This document shows, piece after piece, positions 1-61,056 of a stretch of 61,056 nucleotides of DNA. Origin of the DNA: a virus. Within the stretch, counting starts at the first letter, position 1; every line of letters begins with the position of its first letter. The stretch lies in the IMG/VR virus record IMGVR_UViG_3300027498_000004, positions 1 through 61,056 of that record, one strand, 5' to 3'. Below the pieces are notes generated by a model. That model saw only the letters and a program-made list of their open reading frames with translations, was not told the origin of the DNA and ran no database searches. The position numbers and the translations under genes are program-made.

Positions 1-310
1 CGATTGCAGCTATTGCAGCTATTGCAGCTATTGCCGCTCTTGCAGCTATTGCAGCTCTTGCAGCTATTGCAGCGATTGCAGCTATTGCAGCGATTGCAGC
101 GATTGCAGCGATTGCAGCGATTGCAGCTATTGCAGCTATTGCAGCTATTGCCGCTCTTGCAGCTATTGCAGCTCTTGCAGCTATTGCAGCGATTGCAGCT
201 ATTGCAGCGATTGCAGCGATTGCAGCGATTGCAGCTATTGCAGCTATTGCAGCTATTGCAGCTATTGCCGCTCTTGCAGCGATTGCAGCGATTGCAGCTA
301 TTGCAGCGAA
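1..310 (+). repeat. 9-bp tandem repeat array (TGC-AGC/CGC/CGG-KAT/TCT/AAT units), 3' part; continues from 60819-61056
   Basis: Read directly: 34 consecutive 9-nt units in frame 2. Higher-order repeat 5-121 vs 122-229 (108 bp identical). The 89-mer 1-89 recurs at 118-206 and 60968-61056. Confidence 0.95.
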
Positions 311-670
311 AAAAATGGTAAAGAAAAAAATTCTGATTCTAAAGTTCTACCATTCGGTATAATTCCTAAAATAGAAAACTTGCATCAAAAAGTTCTTGAA
401 GAAGTCTCTAAAGAAGGTCAAGAATTAAATATGAATAATTGGCATACCTGTTCCACAACTCATTGCAGAGCTGGTTGGATAGTTCACATTGCAGGTCAAG
501 AAGGTTATGACTTAGAAAGAAAAACAGATAGTTCTTTTGCTGCTCAATTAATTTTAAGAGAATCAACAGATATACCAATTGGTTTACATAAATTCTTTTG
601 GGATAAAAAAAGCTCAATGTCTGACATAATTAGATGTGCGGAATTAGAAAAGTCTAATAATAAATTGTAA
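2..670 (+). CDS. Cys-x-x triplet-repeat protein, 3' portion (same gene as 60687-61056 across the circular junction)
   Basis: Frame 2 is open from base 2 to TAA 668-670 with no start codon. It is in phase with the ORF starting at ATG 60687 once the 89-bp overlap is removed. The TTG start at 380 in the ORF track is an artefact. Confidence 0.8.
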   Translation, partial: DCSYCSYCSYCRSCSYCSSCSYCSDCSYCSDCSDCSDCSDCSYCSYCSYCRSCSYCSSCSYCSDCSYCSDCSDCSDCSYCSYCSYCSYCRSCSDCSDCSYCSEKNGKEKNSDSKVLPFGIIPKIENLHQKVLEEVSKEGQELNMNNWHTCSTTHCRAGWIVHIAGQEGYDLERKTDSSFAAQLILRESTDIPIGLHKFFWDKKSSMSDIIRCAELEKSNNKL

Positions 671-1054: not shown

Positions 1055-2302
1055 ATGACAGCTCGCCTCGCATTCTCTGCCACAAACGTATTCCAACGGA
1101 ACTATCACAGTAAGAAGAAGATAGTAATCAACCGAGGAGGGACTCGGTCCTCCAAGACTCACTCTATATCACAAATACTTGCTAACTGGCTGGCGACAGG
1201 ATGGGTACGAGAGCACCAGCACATACCAGTAGGAAAAGCAACCGTTGTAAGAAAGTCTGGATCCTCGCTAAAGGGAACAGCAATGTACACCTTCAAGAAG
1301 GCCATCTCCACTATGATGGTAAACGGTCAACCTCTCACCAACTATATCAAAGAGCATAAGACGGATAGAACCTTCACCTATATGGGCAGGTCGATAGTAT
1401 TCATTGGTGCCGACCAGGAGCAGAAGCTTAGAGGAAACGAATGTGATATCCTATACTGCAATGAGGCAAATGAGCTTTCCTATCTAAAAGAGTTCTTCCA
1501 GCTAAACGTCCGTTGTAAGTATGTCAGCTTCATAGATTTCAATCCTTCAGACCCATATACCTGGATCAACGAGGACTTAGAGCAGAAGAGAATGGTTACC
1601 AAGGGCGATGTGGAAGTAATACACAGTACCTATATCGATAACCTGGAGCACCTCACCGAGGAGCAGATAAGCGAGATCGAATATCTGGAGGAGAGCGCAC
1701 CCGATCTATGGGCGGTGTACGGATTAGGCGAGTATGGGCTTGTTGAAGGGCTTATCTTCCCAACAATACACATCATAGACGAAATGCCAACAGAGCTGCG
1801 CAGGAGAGGCTATGGGCAGGATTTAGGGTACTCAATAGATCCGACCACTATACTCAACTGTGGTACCATTGGAAACAACCTGTATGTCGATGAGATATTC
1901 TACCAGCGTGGATTGCTTAAAGACGATATCCTGGATAAGTACAGGGATCACTATATTTCAAAGACCAGACGTATCAATTCGGATTATGGTAACAGGATGA
2001 TCGATGAGATAGGTAACGAGGGATACAACATACACCAGGCAATCAAGATGCCGATCATCGAGGGTATAAGCATCCTCAAGCAATACAAGATTCATGTGAC
2101 GGCAAGGTCGGCAGGCTTGATCAAGGAGCAGAAGCTTTACAAATACAAGGTCAACAAGTCTGGCGATATAGTAACCAATGCCAAGGGACATCCTGTGCCA
2201 ATAGACAAATGGAACCATGGATGGGATGCCCTGCGATACTATGGCGAGTATCACCTCAAGTCTATTGTTAAAAGGAGGGGAGCACGTGCTGGAAGCGTAT
2301 AA
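1055..2302 (+). CDS. terL: terminase large subunit (PBSX/Terminase_3-like)
   Basis: Walker A-like GGTRSSKTHS, Walker B-like ILYCNEANE, nuclease-domain motifs GQDLGYSIDPT and HGWDALRY. Confidence 0.85.
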   Translation: MTARLAFSATNVFQRNYHSKKKIVINRGGTRSSKTHSISQILANWLATGWVREHQHIPVGKATVVRKSGSSLKGTAMYTFKKAISTMMVNGQPLTNYIKEHKTDRTFTYMGRSIVFIGADQEQKLRGNECDILYCNEANELSYLKEFFQLNVRCKYVSFIDFNPSDPYTWINEDLEQKRMVTKGDVEVIHSTYIDNLEHLTEEQISEIEYLEESAPDLWAVYGLGEYGLVEGLIFPTIHIIDEMPTELRRRGYGQDLGYSIDPTTILNCGTIGNNLYVDEIFYQRGLLKDDILDKYRDHYISKTRRINSDYGNRMIDEIGNEGYNIHQAIKMPIIEGISILKQYKIHVTARSAGLIKEQKLYKYKVNKSGDIVTNAKGHPVPIDKWNHGWDALRYYGEYHLKSIVKRRGARAGSV

Positions 2303-3950: not shown

Positions 3951-3985
3951 TCAAAGAGACTCACGAAAAGTAAGAACTAAATTAG

Positions 3986-4058
<73 letters not shown>

Positions 4059-26000: not shown

Positions 26001-26787
26001 AATCGAAGGATTTATAAATGTTGGAGAAGGAGGATATTACATCACTGATTTTCAAGGCAACATTCTCCCTGAAGCTGAGCCTTTCGATTGTGAAAGTTGT
26101 ATTCAAGTATTTGGATGCAGAGATGGAAGACTTGCATGGCCAGCAGGAAGCGTAGTAACGATGTCTAATGGTGATCAATTAGATATATCGGGACTTAGAT
26201 ATACACAAGTTGCTCAATTAATAGTTGATACTTATGGAGGGAGCTATGAAGCTCCAAGTCTAGGTGGACCAATGGGTGCAAACTTTTCACAATGTCAAGG
26301 TAGCTCTCAACATGAACTTCAGTTCTACAATTTGCCAGTTGCAATCGTATCCATTGATGAGATGGATAACTATGGAAAATTTGGACAATGTGGAGCTAAT
26401 GAAATAGCAGATGTTAATTGGGATTATTGTGTGAATGGTAAAAAGGTCAAACTGATTACTTATTTAGATGGATCTACAAGCATAATTGATCCTTCGAATA
26501 ACTCAAGTATTAATGGAGTTCTTGGATGCTGTGATTGTGAAGCTGTTGATTGTGGTCAAGGCTGTGAAGTGACTGAAGGAGGAGGTATACCAGGAGAATC
26601 GTTTATTGTTAGTTGCGAGCTCTCTTGTCAAGTTGGCGATAATATAATCATATACAATGAAGACTGCTCTGTGAAGTGCACAGGGACTATTTCTGGATTT
26701 GGTCTAGATGGCCAAGGTGGAACTAAAATACAACTATCGAGTAGAGATTGCTTTCCAATTATAGGACAAACTGTAAGCTGTGAATAG
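23071..26787 (+). CDS. very large Cys-rich protein with an N-terminal signal peptide
   Basis: 1238 aa. N-terminus MKHKALLITAILLWVRLLSFAQ (alternative ATG at 23086). Dozens of Cys throughout. Confidence 0.8.
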   Translation: MIQLMKHKALLITAILLWVRLLSFAQLGGVENWFPACDTLTGEVIYIQQSELIDDCCWEWNGDNWEKRENCDNVDSNCIETSIYTEELCYHGIFHWYDNTTPSNGACGLVSANYGLNPNETTWIGFENKCDIYDPFIGHTNTAPNLNGYFDDMNDYLTANTDSEWVWGLNTPDKCWRYFSTISKDECYGTWTLDYKGNEVTVVPRREYKKCEITKKVCEYKMDGQIITDEFFYGTDVDGNDSLLLDLPQYIIDCTGWDPVVVNKIYQDNGDVINCLTTDCTERTLTEIENPCPIQSYGPFCDYDYNVETDECVINATEIYLDIDCNGVNWFYTISEDGVTPYEEPVGEIGNCDCTQIVTEPQGCPEGLNWQCVTTGESSYGILDNSLYTNLPTNHLQNGNNYEFTLLHEDGTTTVIQQSANTYFGNFRTILEAALPECKVVYVCANHTSPNGCNAGFVSNLAQYPAYDAPTAPGDVQNNLNNPAQSELWATGWLIDCQSCVSPITRVTITNANDASHIGAFKDIINYKTPGEQIFQAVDCGKIYYQSCDNPPVALEAPDCKPTLCPAGISDDEIEDQCTTSSIIGCVDDKTLLLVIETCKVDTTGLDCNPDELTVLYASDEFEGTPGITQTANGWDQLTFGDNKTGATSQTQATSDVANATGPSAAGILGVSNCGDTHMQSLIGGTGATVFGEGLKKTFTGLTIGAQLCIDFSQAVSNQTNGCFDRGGWTVCLDDNLASAQNSAETIDPAQETNPTNPNLNWENRNACFNITATTHTLSLTPYSTDQDYTCGNWLGRMAIDCVEVTESSAGGSNDPLCSCAEITCVTDPVTGDNYDIEDISLVPCGTNDVCFDIEQSSELVCINDGLENILAFAVNEILADCITGEQVGQNNYFTDLEGNTYNSTDVTFSEDCEGVVIEGQVCTNGETLNTLTIDGVTTYYDLGGNQVIKIGTIDYVGACIEPTSIFKCCAVNFGNQIEGFINVGEGGYYITDFQGNILPEAEPFDCESCIQVFGCRDGRLAWPAGSVVTMSNGDQLDISGLRYTQVAQLIVDTYGGSYEAPSLGGPMGANFSQCQGSSQHELQFYNLPVAIVSIDEMDNYGKFGQCGANEIADVNWDYCVNGKKVKLITYLDGSTSIIDPSNNSSINGVLGCCDCEAVDCGQGCEVTEGGGIPGESFIVSCELSCQVGDNIIIYNEDCSVKCTGTISGFGLDGQGGTKIQLSSRDCFPIIGQTVSCE

Positions 26788-27607
26788 AATTATTATAGGC
26801 ATATTATTATTGTTTCCTCTTTTTGCTTTTAGCCAAGAGTTTGACTTGTCAGATTGTTGTGATAGATCATCTGAATCACAAGTGCTTGATCTTGAGTTTA
26901 AAACTATATACCAAGAAGAGTTTGCTGGTGGAGCCAATGGCAAACTAGGTTCTAATATATGGACTAGAAATAGTACTGTAGTTCAAACAGCAGAAGGACA
27001 ATTCACAGTCACCTTCGATACGCCACATCCTGATGGAGTTTTTTATCATATTAGCTATGAAGGCATTGAGGATAATTTAAGAGACAATCCAAAAGTGACT
27101 ACAATAGAAGGAACTAAGTCAGCAAATGGATTTCAAGTTATGATAACTGTAGATGATAATGGTGCTGGTGCAGATATCTATGAAGATAACGGATGGTCAT
27201 TTTCTGTTGCTGCTCCTTGTGAGGTTTTAAGCAACGCAAGTTTATCGCAAGGAGGGGATGCTGGATCAGATAATGAAGGCTCTCCTTCCTTACCAGCAGC
27301 TAATGGAAAAGTTGTCTCTGATAATTTTCAAGATCAGCAGTTTGTTCCTTTCAATCTTCAAGTAAGAAATACAACAAATGCTCCAGTGCAATGGGAGGCA
27401 TACTTACAGAGTGTTCCATATTGCACAATACCAAATATTACTTATCCACAAGGTTTTACAGCTGTGCTTGTTACCACAAATAATATAGATGGAACTTGCA
27501 ATCACTTATTTAGTGGATCTTTGCCAGCATTTGAAAATATTGAAATTAAGGCAGATGTAGTTTTGCCATTTGGTAATCAATCAGGATTAACTCTATACTG
27601 TCAATGA
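26780..27607 (+). CDS. exported protein (signal peptide MNRIIIGILLLFPLFAFSQ)
   Basis: GTG start overlapping the previous stop. Typical n-h-c signal region. Confidence 0.7.
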   Translation: MNRIIIGILLLFPLFAFSQEFDLSDCCDRSSESQVLDLEFKTIYQEEFAGGANGKLGSNIWTRNSTVVQTAEGQFTVTFDTPHPDGVFYHISYEGIEDNLRDNPKVTTIEGTKSANGFQVMITVDDNGAGADIYEDNGWSFSVAAPCEVLSNASLSQGGDAGSDNEGSPSLPAANGKVVSDNFQDQQFVPFNLQVRNTTNAPVQWEAYLQSVPYCTIPNITYPQGFTAVLVTTNNIDGTCNHLFSGSLPAFENIEIKADVVLPFGNQSGLTLYCQ

Positions 27608-40473: not shown

Positions 40474-41402
40474 AATTCAATGTAAATATAAATCAGAAAC
40501 AGCTAAGTAAAGTTGATGGAATAGACCTTAAGGATGCTGCAATATTGGTATACGTTGAGGGTTTTATGAATAGCCGAAAGACTAAGAAGATACTTGTTGG
40601 AAATATTACATACATCTGGATTTCGTACGCTCATTTAATAGATGAAATGCCACTGCTTAAGCTTAAATCAAAGGATGCTATTTATCGCAGATTTCGTAAG
40701 TTAACTAATGCTGGACTGCTTGAGCCACATAAAGATAATAGGAGTATGGGTAAGTCTTATTATGCTTTTGGACCAATATATGAATCTATAATTAGCGACT
40801 CATATAAAGGTAAACCTACGGATGAAAAAACGGAGGGGGTACGGATGAAAAACCAAAGCACCTGCGGTCAAAAAGTCGGAGGGGGTACGGATGAAATTAC
40901 CGAGGAACATAGTATTAGTAAACATTCAACTAATGAATCTAATACTAACAACAAAGAGGCTCCCCTCAAAAATTTAAATGAGCAGGCAATTGAAATTGTA
41001 AACCACCTTGCAGAAGGTATTGGTAAAAATCTAATGACCAAAATTTCTGGACGTGGCTCATCAAACGTAACCAACGCAAAAAAATTACTGCGCAAAAAAT
41101 ATTCTGTAGATGAGATCAAAAATATGATCGCAATGAAAATATTTGAGTGGACGGGCACTGATAATGAAATTAATTTAACTCCAGAGACTTTATTCGGAAG
41201 AGCAAGTAAATCATCGGGGTATGTGGACCGAGCTATTGAGCTGGCAAGTGATCCAGTAGCAAAGCAAAAATTTATAAATCAGGTTAATTTAAGAAAGGAA
41301 CGATACAAAAATCAAATCAATGGAAATTCAAAAGGTAAATCAAAAGGAGGTTTCAGTCAAAAGTTTGCTGCCGAAGTTGCAGAAGGAATTAAGGGAATGT
41401 AG
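40470..41402 (+). CDS. replisome organiser/DnaD-like replication protein with a conserved phage C-terminal domain
   Basis: N-terminal winged-helix-like AIYRRFRKLTNAGLLEP. C-terminal IVNHLAEGIGKNL...AKKLLRKKYSVDEIKNMIAMKIFEWTG...LTPETLFG resembles Phg_2220_C. Confidence 0.55.
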   Translation: MKFNVNINQKQLSKVDGIDLKDAAILVYVEGFMNSRKTKKILVGNITYIWISYAHLIDEMPLLKLKSKDAIYRRFRKLTNAGLLEPHKDNRSMGKSYYAFGPIYESIISDSYKGKPTDEKTEGVRMKNQSTCGQKVGGGTDEITEEHSISKHSTNESNTNNKEAPLKNLNEQAIEIVNHLAEGIGKNLMTKISGRGSSNVTNAKKLLRKKYSVDEIKNMIAMKIFEWTGTDNEINLTPETLFGRASKSSGYVDRAIELASDPVAKQKFINQVNLRKERYKNQINGNSKGKSKGGFSQKFAAEVAEGIKGM

Positions 41403-56031: not shown

Positions 56032-56102
56032 GGTACCATGTCCGAGTGGCTAGGAGTTGGTTTGCAAAACCAATCACATCGGTTCGAATCCGATTGGTAT
56101 CT
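56032..56102 (+). tRNA. tRNA-Cys (anticodon GCA)
   Basis: Folded by hand: acceptor GGUACCA/UGGUAUC, D arm UCC-GAGUGGCUA-GGA, anticodon arm UUGGU-UUGCAAA-ACCAA, variable loop UCAC, T arm AUCGG-UUCGAAU-CCGAU, discriminator U73. Confidence 0.85.
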
Positions 56103-56127
56103 CGGTTAGACTCTAGTTTTTTGTTGG

Positions 56128-60686: not shown

Positions 60687-61056
60687 ATGCAAAAAACATT
60701 GATTTTTAAATCGTATGCTGAATTTCTAAAAAGAGAAGATAAATCTATCAATGGTGTATCAAAATCATTTAGCGAAAAACGTTCAGACTATAAGCAAGAT
60801 AATTCAACAAATAATGGTTGTTGGAATTGCCGGTCTTGCAGCTATTGCAGCGATTGCAGCTATTGCAGCGATTGCAGCGATTGCCGCAATTGCCGGTCTT
60901 GCAGCTATTGCAGCGATTGCAGCTATTGCAGCGATTGCAGCGATTGCAGCGATTGCCGCGATTGCAGCGATTGCAGCTATTGCAGCTATTGCAGCTATTG
61001 CCGCTCTTGCAGCTATTGCAGCTCTTGCAGCTATTGCAGCGATTGCAGCTATTGCA
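60687..61056 (+). CDS. Cys-x-x triplet-repeat protein, 5' portion (runs off the window end; continues at 90-670)
   Basis: ATG 60687, 44 unique codons (MQKTLIFKSYAEFLKREDKS...NSTNNG), then CWN-CRS-CSY-CSD... units to the last base. No stop codon. Confidence 0.8.
   Translation, partial: MQKTLIFKSYAEFLKREDKSINGVSKSFSEKRSDYKQDNSTNNGCWNCRSCSYCSDCSYCSDCSDCRNCRSCSYCSDCSYCSDCSDCSDCRDCSDCSYCSYCSYCRSCSYCSSCSYCSDCSYC
60819..61056 (+). repeat. 9-bp tandem repeat array, 5' part (26 full units plus the start of the next)
   Basis: Read directly: TGT TGG AAT, TGC CGG TCT, then TGC AGC TAT/GAT units. The last 89 bp equal 1-89. Confidence 0.95.

Follow-up and report, generated by a model that had tools for sequence, protein, structure and literature searches.

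A phage gene split by its contig ends encodes one of the longest Cys-x-x arrays of a large undescribed family of modular phage proteins

The IMG/VR virus record IMGVR_UViG_3300027498_000004 (positions 1 to 61,056; this whole stretch is referred to below as the window) carries, divided between its two ends, a gene whose product contains at least 51 consecutive units of one Cys and two further residues (C-x-x, or CXX) between two unique domains. Among the arrays seen in a very large undescribed family of phage proteins, it ranks with the longest. The original prediction, made from the letters of the window, had recognised the wrapped gene, its reading frame and a plausibly variable length of the locus, and these parts agree with what we found in relatives; its statement that the protein fits no known family has to be corrected. 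Indeed, the protein matches two PHROG families, phrog_31265 (E 6e-15, aa 214-312) and phrog_15341 (E 1.4e-12, aa 44-138), which contain true homologues and are both catalogued without function or description.

A search of a set of 5.8 billion proteins returned at least 533 relatives at E ≤1e-3. Nearly all of the best 120 of these, which were examined for architecture, consist of an N-terminal domain (NTD), 5-35 CXX units and a C-terminal domain (C-domain), and the array of the window protein is the longest among the 120 complete proteins compared. An NTD-only profile found 382 representatives at 50% identity, and a profile of the C-domain matched at least 3633 protein clusters, most of them of ~100 aa. 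The NTD has the invariant residues F13, R16, N22, G23, F28 and N42 (87 relatives), the first four to five Cys of the array are invariant in the family alignments, and the C-domain contains invariant His and Cys residues and the sequence HCRA(G)W within the motif WHxCxTTHCRAGW (HCRAGW domain). The window protein fits these alignments (A1, A2, A3) in the conserved NTD residues (F, R, NG, F, N, CW), in the C-x-x run and in the C-domain motif. The array is connected to the C-domain through a linker of variable length (median 20 aa from the array end to the conserved IH motif). Among cultured phages, Flavobacterium phage FL-1 possesses a true homologue with the same NTD (MKTQIFESYIAFCSREDKSLNGVS...), ~36 CXX units and the same C-domain (locus 26455-27271); the array in the window is longer and has AGC rather than TCC as its Ser codon. 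Pfam, NCBIfam and PADLOC scans of the window protein assigned no family, and the PADLOC-DB defence models matched neither this protein nor P0024, P0008 and P0075 (three relatives). A full-text literature search with array unit strings and domain motifs retrieved no relevant paper. Membership is established for these uncharacterised PHROG families only.

The gene was reconstructed from two open reading frames (ORFs). Frame 2 at the window start is open from base 2 to a TAA stop codon, an ORF beginning with ATG at 60687 extends past the window end, and the two ends share an exact overlap of 89 nt. Joining 60687..61056 to 90..670 gives a gene of 951 nt (316 codons) for a protein of three parts, namely 44 unique residues, 51 unbroken C-x-x units and 119 further residues (Table 1). 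The units are CSY (21), CSD (19), CRS (5), CSS (2), and CWN, CRN, CRD and CSE (1 each), with TGC as Cys codon in 50 units and TGT in one. After removal of the overlap the two parts are in phase, as had been pointed out; as evidence this counts for little, because both window ends lie in one 9-bp register and an in-phase join is therefore automatic. An alternative end overlap of 17 nt likewise gives an in-frame join. In Tandem Repeats Finder the 9-bp array scored 477 at 3-307 and 309 at 60836-61056, and the tandem units occupy the window's first 310 and last 238 bases.

The higher-order repeats of 108-117 bp that had been noticed in the array are real, with an exact run of 128 nt at a shift of 117 and a run of 59 nt at a shift of 108. 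The 89-mer shared by the window ends lies inside the 128-nt exact repeat and is not unique (copies at 1, 118 and 60968); if the window end is overlaid on position 118, a mismatch follows after 10 further bases. No consistent way of closing the gene is shorter than the one at base 1, so that 51 units are a minimum and the true number has the form 51 + 13k. The terminal overlap marks an assembly break inside a tandem array and is not a proven genome terminus. At least five assemblies of the same phage exist (this contig; ERZ511480 NODE_599, 60,998 bp; ERZ27241780 k141_46255, 60,987 bp; JGI 3300009421, 20,749 + 40,213 bp; Logan SRR5754714), and every contig ends within the array. NODE_599 has one copy of the 12-13-unit higher-order block and the window has two; either the length is truly polymorphic or the block has collapsed. 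With two assemblies of one phage differing by one 13-unit block and 5 to 65 units in the family, a length-variable locus, as originally suggested, is plausible. An assembly artefact as source of the array was rejected, since some finished or long contigs run through complete arrays (e.g., Granulicella CP046444, a 981-kb Spirosoma contig).

In relatives only the C-x-x frame joins the N- and C-terminal domains. This frame is therefore taken as the one that codes for the protein; the call of the ORF track at 4-321 (LQLLQ...), which the original prediction had already dismissed, is wrong. Across 42 arrays compared at the DNA level, the other frames frequently hold stop codons, the C-x-x frame is always open, and Cys is nearly always encoded by TGC. 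The consensus unit of the family is C-[S 68%]-[D 36%, G 21%, R 13%, Y 11%, N 8%]. The Ser at position 2 is encoded by AGY in this array, in Granulicella and in the loci L017, L029 and L041, and by TCN in most others, and the two kinds of Ser codons are never mixed inside one array. As a change from AGY to TCN needs at least two substitutions, it is the peptide pattern that is conserved, and this codon usage indicates that selection acts on the protein. One could also imagine that the function resides in the DNA, with the 9-bp repeats serving as iterons or as a packaging site beside the terminase genes and their translation being incidental. The array does lie ~750 bp upstream of the large terminase gene, and all assemblies break in it. 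However, the breaks are explained by the 128-nt exact repeat, the gene is found elsewhere in relatives (e.g., mid-genome in FL-1, in the early regions of prophages), and the units differ (TGCAGCKAT here, TGCTCCGRT in FL-1), whereas the pattern of the peptide is kept, as are the domains on either side of it. A DNA-level element, with the peptide conserved and the DNA not, is hence very improbable and was rejected.

The protein is built from two modules that move independently of each other, the NTD with its CXX array and the C-domain. In 65 loci found in a scan of GTDB species genomes, the HCRAGW domain follows CXX arrays in ~31 and pentapeptide repeats in ~28 cases; the longest arrays have 65 units (a Spirosoma contig), 56 (L031) and 48 (L022 and L041). 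Proteins of Ralstonia phages consist of bona fide pentapeptide repeats (PF00805, E 4e-41) and the same C-domain, and PF00805 was also matched at E 5e-24 by a homologue with this domain; the window protein itself has no Pfam pentapeptide match. That the array and pentapeptide helices can replace each other ahead of a single conserved domain hints at a common activity in early infection. The HCRAGW domain was also observed after a 12-aa tandem repeat (AATVDRVLSIAS; L043, L064) and after repeats resembling leucine-rich repeats (L026), which shows that a repeat module followed by this domain is a general pattern. Furthermore, Xanthomonas sp. NCPPB 1128 (NZ_LFME01000002.1; L072, L073) has two identical genes of the pentapeptide type ~37 kb apart on one contig.

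Among the 382 NTD representatives, the NTD nearly always precedes a C-x-x run, and it is the tail that varies: a hydrophobic C-terminal (transmembrane) helix, a Fis-type helix-turn-helix (HTH) domain, DUF3310, a ligase Ia-like domain, a second NTD+CXX module, or none. In P0251 the NTD+CXX module occurs in tandem twice; elsewhere (P0316, P0345, P0350) it is fused to ligase Ia-like, Fis-type HTH and DUF3310 domains, several of these partners being related to nucleic acids. Vibrio phage 1.238.A gp68 (YP_010093418.1; L082 2995-3369) has the NTD, 22 CXX units and a short acidic tail without the C-domain.

Genes of this family are systematically misannotated. We checked three seemingly standalone C-domain calls of ~100 aa on long contigs, and all three were truncated: L005 and L006 have the NTD, ~40 CXX units and the C-domain intact in one frame, from which callers had produced a wrong-frame array ORF plus a shortened C-domain, and in L007 the contig begins inside the array. 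The reading of many such ~100-aa calls as standalone C-domain proteins was rejected accordingly. Similarly, 14 of the 65 genome loci begin inside the repeat. Since assemblers break contigs in the array and callers emit wrong-frame peptides (VAPIAP..., LQLLQ...) together with a truncated C-domain, protein catalogues misrepresent the family. Note also that the FL-1 record (KY421186.2, ~26455-27271; L001 2527-3343) has a one-base frameshift in the C-domain (CETTQLSCWLG versus CETTHCRAGW), and that two "hypothetical proteins" stand in the annotation for this gene, one of which is read in the wrong (VAPIAP...) frame.

As to the fold, AlphaFold2 (AF2) modelled the NTD and the C-domain of the 51-unit protein with high confidence (predicted local distance difference test score, pLDDT, 90-96 and 90-97, respectively), the C-domain being all-alpha. 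The cap formed by the NTD and the first four to five Cys were modelled confidently together. Just past the cap, isolated bridges 12 residues apart appeared in the models (41/53, 44/56 and 47/59 in P0008, a relative with 12 units; 43/55 in the window protein). The gp68 array aligned in phmmer with the beetle antifreeze protein TmAFP (1EZG) over 64 aa and in register, with the Cys and alternating Ser/Ala of TmAFP falling on successive array Cys; with an E value of 0.23 this alignment is not significant. The gp68 protein is labelled "insect antifreeze protein" via InterPro IPR016133. Three leads, i.e. the exchange with a pentapeptide beta-helix, the 1EZG register and the 12-residue AF2 bridges, point to a beta-solenoid. 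Furthermore, the N-terminus of the window protein (MQKTLIFKSYAEFLKREDK) is hydrophilic and has no signal peptide. The protein is probably cytoplasmic because of the lack of a hydrophobic N-terminus, and without a signal peptide a disulfide ladder is unlikely.

We therefore tentatively favour, as plausible though short of probable, a cytoplasmic accessory protein in which a cap-nucleated solenoid rod with a Cys core, possibly loaded with metal, carries a His/Cys effector domain. The cap would nucleate a narrow beta-solenoid, in which the Cys at every third residue points inward and the two x residues form the surface. Its geometry would be the "in-out-out" of the 12-residue coil of beetle antifreeze proteins, with all four inward positions taken by Cys. 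In the reducing cytoplasm the thiol column would more likely be metal-bound (Zn or Fe) than disulfide-bonded. The rod, of ~13 coils and ~60 Å here, would serve as a scaffold bearing the C-domain, which would be the conserved end that does the work, probably by binding some component of the host. The array length may change fast when 9-bp units and 117-bp blocks slip or recombine unequally. A stricter version, in which the array is a solenoid of 12 residues per turn with a continuous Cys thiolate column and stacked metal ions (about one site per coil, ~13 here), seems to us decidedly unlikely.

Several results weigh against a solenoid rod. Most of the array has a pLDDT below 50 in the models of both the 51-unit protein and P0008. 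The Pfam antifreeze repeat model (PF02420) matched neither the window protein (E ≤1) nor gp68 (E ≤10). The x positions have no 4-unit periodicity, the sole signal being a slight depletion at lags 2, 5 and 8. Unit counts have no modulo-4 preference, their distribution being uniform modulo 2 to 6, although a flexible linker would remove such a constraint anyway. For the C-domain, neither structure nor sequence comparison gave a relative whose function is known: Foldseek searches with both AF2 models found nothing in PDB and only the FL-1 fragment in BFVD, and PDB sequence and profile searches with the C-domain, the full-length protein and the NTD found nothing significant.

The low model confidence could also mean that the array is a mere tether, an unstructured and tolerated slippage product between folded domains, whose Cys have no specific role. 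Besides the AF2 scores, the length of the array, which varies freely from 5 to 65 units without modular preference, is in line with this, as are the near-identical units that indicate a recent expansion. However, a neutral linker would not keep a costly reactive residue at a strict period of three. The Cys at position 1 is unbroken over hundreds of independent arrays in which the neighbouring Ser codon families differ, and the first four to five Cys are not only invariant but also modelled with the cap. A tether thus appears unlikely. The solenoid rod fits the architecture of the proteins and the module swaps.

In the window, all large ORFs are on the plus strand; among their products are the large terminase, RecT, a helicase, a sigma-like factor, lysis enzymes and methylases. 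The virus is a tailed phage, and the presence of a gene for a CHU_C-domain protein suggests that its host belongs to the Bacteroidota. The CXX gene closes a run of ~16 small ORFs and is followed by two further small ORFs and then by the terminase gene. In prophages of Granulicella sp. 5B5 and Hymenobacter coalescens, it belongs to a region of many small ORFs and directly follows genes for cI/cro-like proteins and an antirepressor; the copies in L005 and L006 are close to an integrase gene, and in T7-like Ralstonia phages the gene precedes that for the primase. These positions suggest early expression. There is no conserved neighbour gene (at most 5 of 73 loci share one), and the largest neighbour cluster was an artefact of reverse-strand ORFs across repeats. 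The Pfam lists of the called genes of the 61-kb phage contain no maturase of ribosomally synthesized and post-translationally modified peptides (RiPPs), i.e., no YcaO, cyclodehydratase, dehydrogenase, docking or radical-SAM gene. As both a conserved neighbour and a maturase are lacking, the gene seems to be an accessory one whose product works on its own.

The unique parts of the gene are AT-rich (26.5% GC at 60687-60818 and 30% at 311-670, versus 40.7% for the genome; the array has 52%), which may reflect horizontal acquisition. The phage has a tRNA-Cys gene whose anticodon decodes TGC. The CXX gene accounts for ~51 of the ~231 TGC codons of the phage (~22%) and for ~13% of all its Cys codons, and the tRNA may support translation of the array. 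Cys makes up 1.9% of the codons of the phage overall; two other proteins, both without a Pfam match, are Cys-rich (72 Cys in ~1238 aa, 5.8%, and 28 in 533 aa, 5.2%). A tRNA-Met gene lies on the minus strand among the large plus-strand ORFs, and the only megablast matches of the window to known phages came from it. Between ORFs of the replication region there is a tandem repeat of 23 bp.

Table 1. Parts of the split CXX gene and other features of the window
Feature	Position	Strand	Remarks
N-terminal cap domain, type A NTD	60687..60818	+	codons 1-44 (MQKTLIFKSYAEFLKREDKSINGVS...NNG); ATG ORF
5' part of C-x-x array, 26.4 units	60819..61056	+	begins TGT TGG AAT (CWN), runs off window end
3' part of C-x-x array, 34.4 units	1..310	+	frame 2; last unit TGC AGC GAA (CSE) at 302-310
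Terminal overlap, 89 nt	60968..61056	.	same as 1-89; further copy 118-206
Low-complexity linker	311..358	+	KNGKEKNSDSKVLPFG; AF2 pLDDT ~50-55
Helical His/Cys C-terminal domain	359..670	+	IIPKIENLHQ...WHTCSTTHCRAGW...IIRCAELEK; stop TAA 668-670
Small ORF, 66 aa	680-880		
Small ORF, 61 aa	928-1113		
Large terminase gene	1055-2302	+	
tRNA-Met (CAT)	3985-4058	-	
Cys-rich protein, 533 aa	10387-11988	+	28 Cys
Cys-rich protein, ~1238 aa	23071-26787	+	72 Cys
Tandem repeat, 23 bp	40817-40896		3.5 copies, 63% matches (TACGGATGAAAAAACGGAGGGGG)
tRNA-Cys (GCA)	56032-56103	+	ARAGORN; decodes TGC

The interest of this gene lies in the family as a whole and not in the present instance as something unique. The module is common and undescribed, being present in hundreds to thousands of phage and prophage genomes, with carriers among Bacteroidota, Proteobacteria, Acidobacteriota, Planctomycetota, Cyanobacteria and Patescibacteria. 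For laboratory work there are phages in culture, namely Flavobacterium phage FL-1, Vibrio phage 1.238.A and Ralstonia phage RsoP1IDN. If the all-Cys-core solenoid or the metal rod holds, it would be a new protein architecture of tunable length; to our knowledge, a solenoid with such a core and a metal stack, both as a fold and as a cofactor arrangement, has been described for no protein. The metal-loaded form would be a natural protein-sheathed metal-thiolate rod, whose length phages could adjust in 9-bp steps and which they could attach to different effectors.

Among known proteins, metallothioneins and CXXC zinc fingers have ~30% Cys and Ser-rich spacers, as does the array with its 33% Cys, and in CXXC zinc fingers consecutive CxxCxxC can wrap a single Zn. 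Together with the cytoplasmic location and the variable copy number, this would suit a metal sponge, i.e., a metallothionein-like sink for Zn, Cu, Cd or Fe, whose capacity would scale with the number of units and which would need no defined rod. However, metallothioneins and zinc fingers are small single domains without a strict period, and aromatic residues, which are unusual in metallothioneins, are frequent in the array (~0.29 per unit). No metallothionein family model matched in Pfam or NCBIfam, and the top PDB matches to CXXC zinc fingers (4hp1, 3qmb, 5w9s) are weak and not significant (E 0.15-10). Because the module hardly ever occurs without a fused domain of another kind (HTH, transmembrane, HCRAGW) and is replaceable by a Cys-free pentapeptide helix, a scaffold is to be expected rather than a pure sink. 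The resemblances are thus only compositional, and we consider the sponge a doubtful explanation.

Of the sequence patterns described in the literature, the nearest is a Cys-Xaa-Xaa core, that of heterocycloanthracin and sonorensin, precursors of thiazole/oxazole-modified microcins (TIGR03601), in which the number of repeats is variable between strains and which are often missed or miscalled by gene callers (Haft 2009, PMC2674419). By analogy, the N-terminus of the window protein could be a leader and the array a core that is converted to thiazoles or thioethers. These precursors, however, have ~90 aa with ~13 Cys and a leader, and they need cyclodehydratase, dehydrogenase and docking genes. 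The arrays studied here are 4-5 times longer than known cores and are followed by a folded domain of 100 aa, the 73 loci have no neighbour in common, and the leader model of heterocycloanthracin gave no NCBIfam match (only a sub-threshold one to HxsA4, 19.7 bits versus a cutoff of 55). In the absence of maturases among the called genes of the phage, a RiPP precursor was rejected as hardly credible.

Pentapeptide repeats (PF00805), which form a quadrilateral beta-helix in, e.g., MfpA and Qnr, occupy the same place between a small N-terminal cap and the HCRAGW domain, and they form a rod of repeats that varies in length. They differ in having a period of five, a Leu/Phe/Ala core, no Cys and 20 residues per coil, and they have no sequence relation to the CXX array; a literature search on pentapeptide repeats and phages yielded nothing on the HCRAGW domain.

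The only described fold known to us with inward residues at a strict period of three is that of the beetle antifreeze proteins. TmAFP and DhbAFP (PDB 1EZG) consist of the 12-residue repeat TCTxSxNCxxAx and form a right-handed beta-helix, in which C2, S5, C8 and A11 point inward (PMC8038014). Like the CXX proteins, they are Cys-rich tandem repeats with isoforms that vary in repeat number. In contrast, only half of their inward positions are Cys, they are eukaryotic, secreted and disulfide-bonded, and they have neither a flanking NTD nor a C-domain. Their ice-binding face of Thr-x-Thr has no counterpart in the array, where Cys is flanked by Y/D/S and S/R/W. Of the guesses made in the original prediction, namely metallothionein-like metal sequestration, a Zn/Fe-S scaffold or a disulfide-ladder fibre, the "ladder" is nearest to this antifreeze beta-helix, the best structural analogue that we found.

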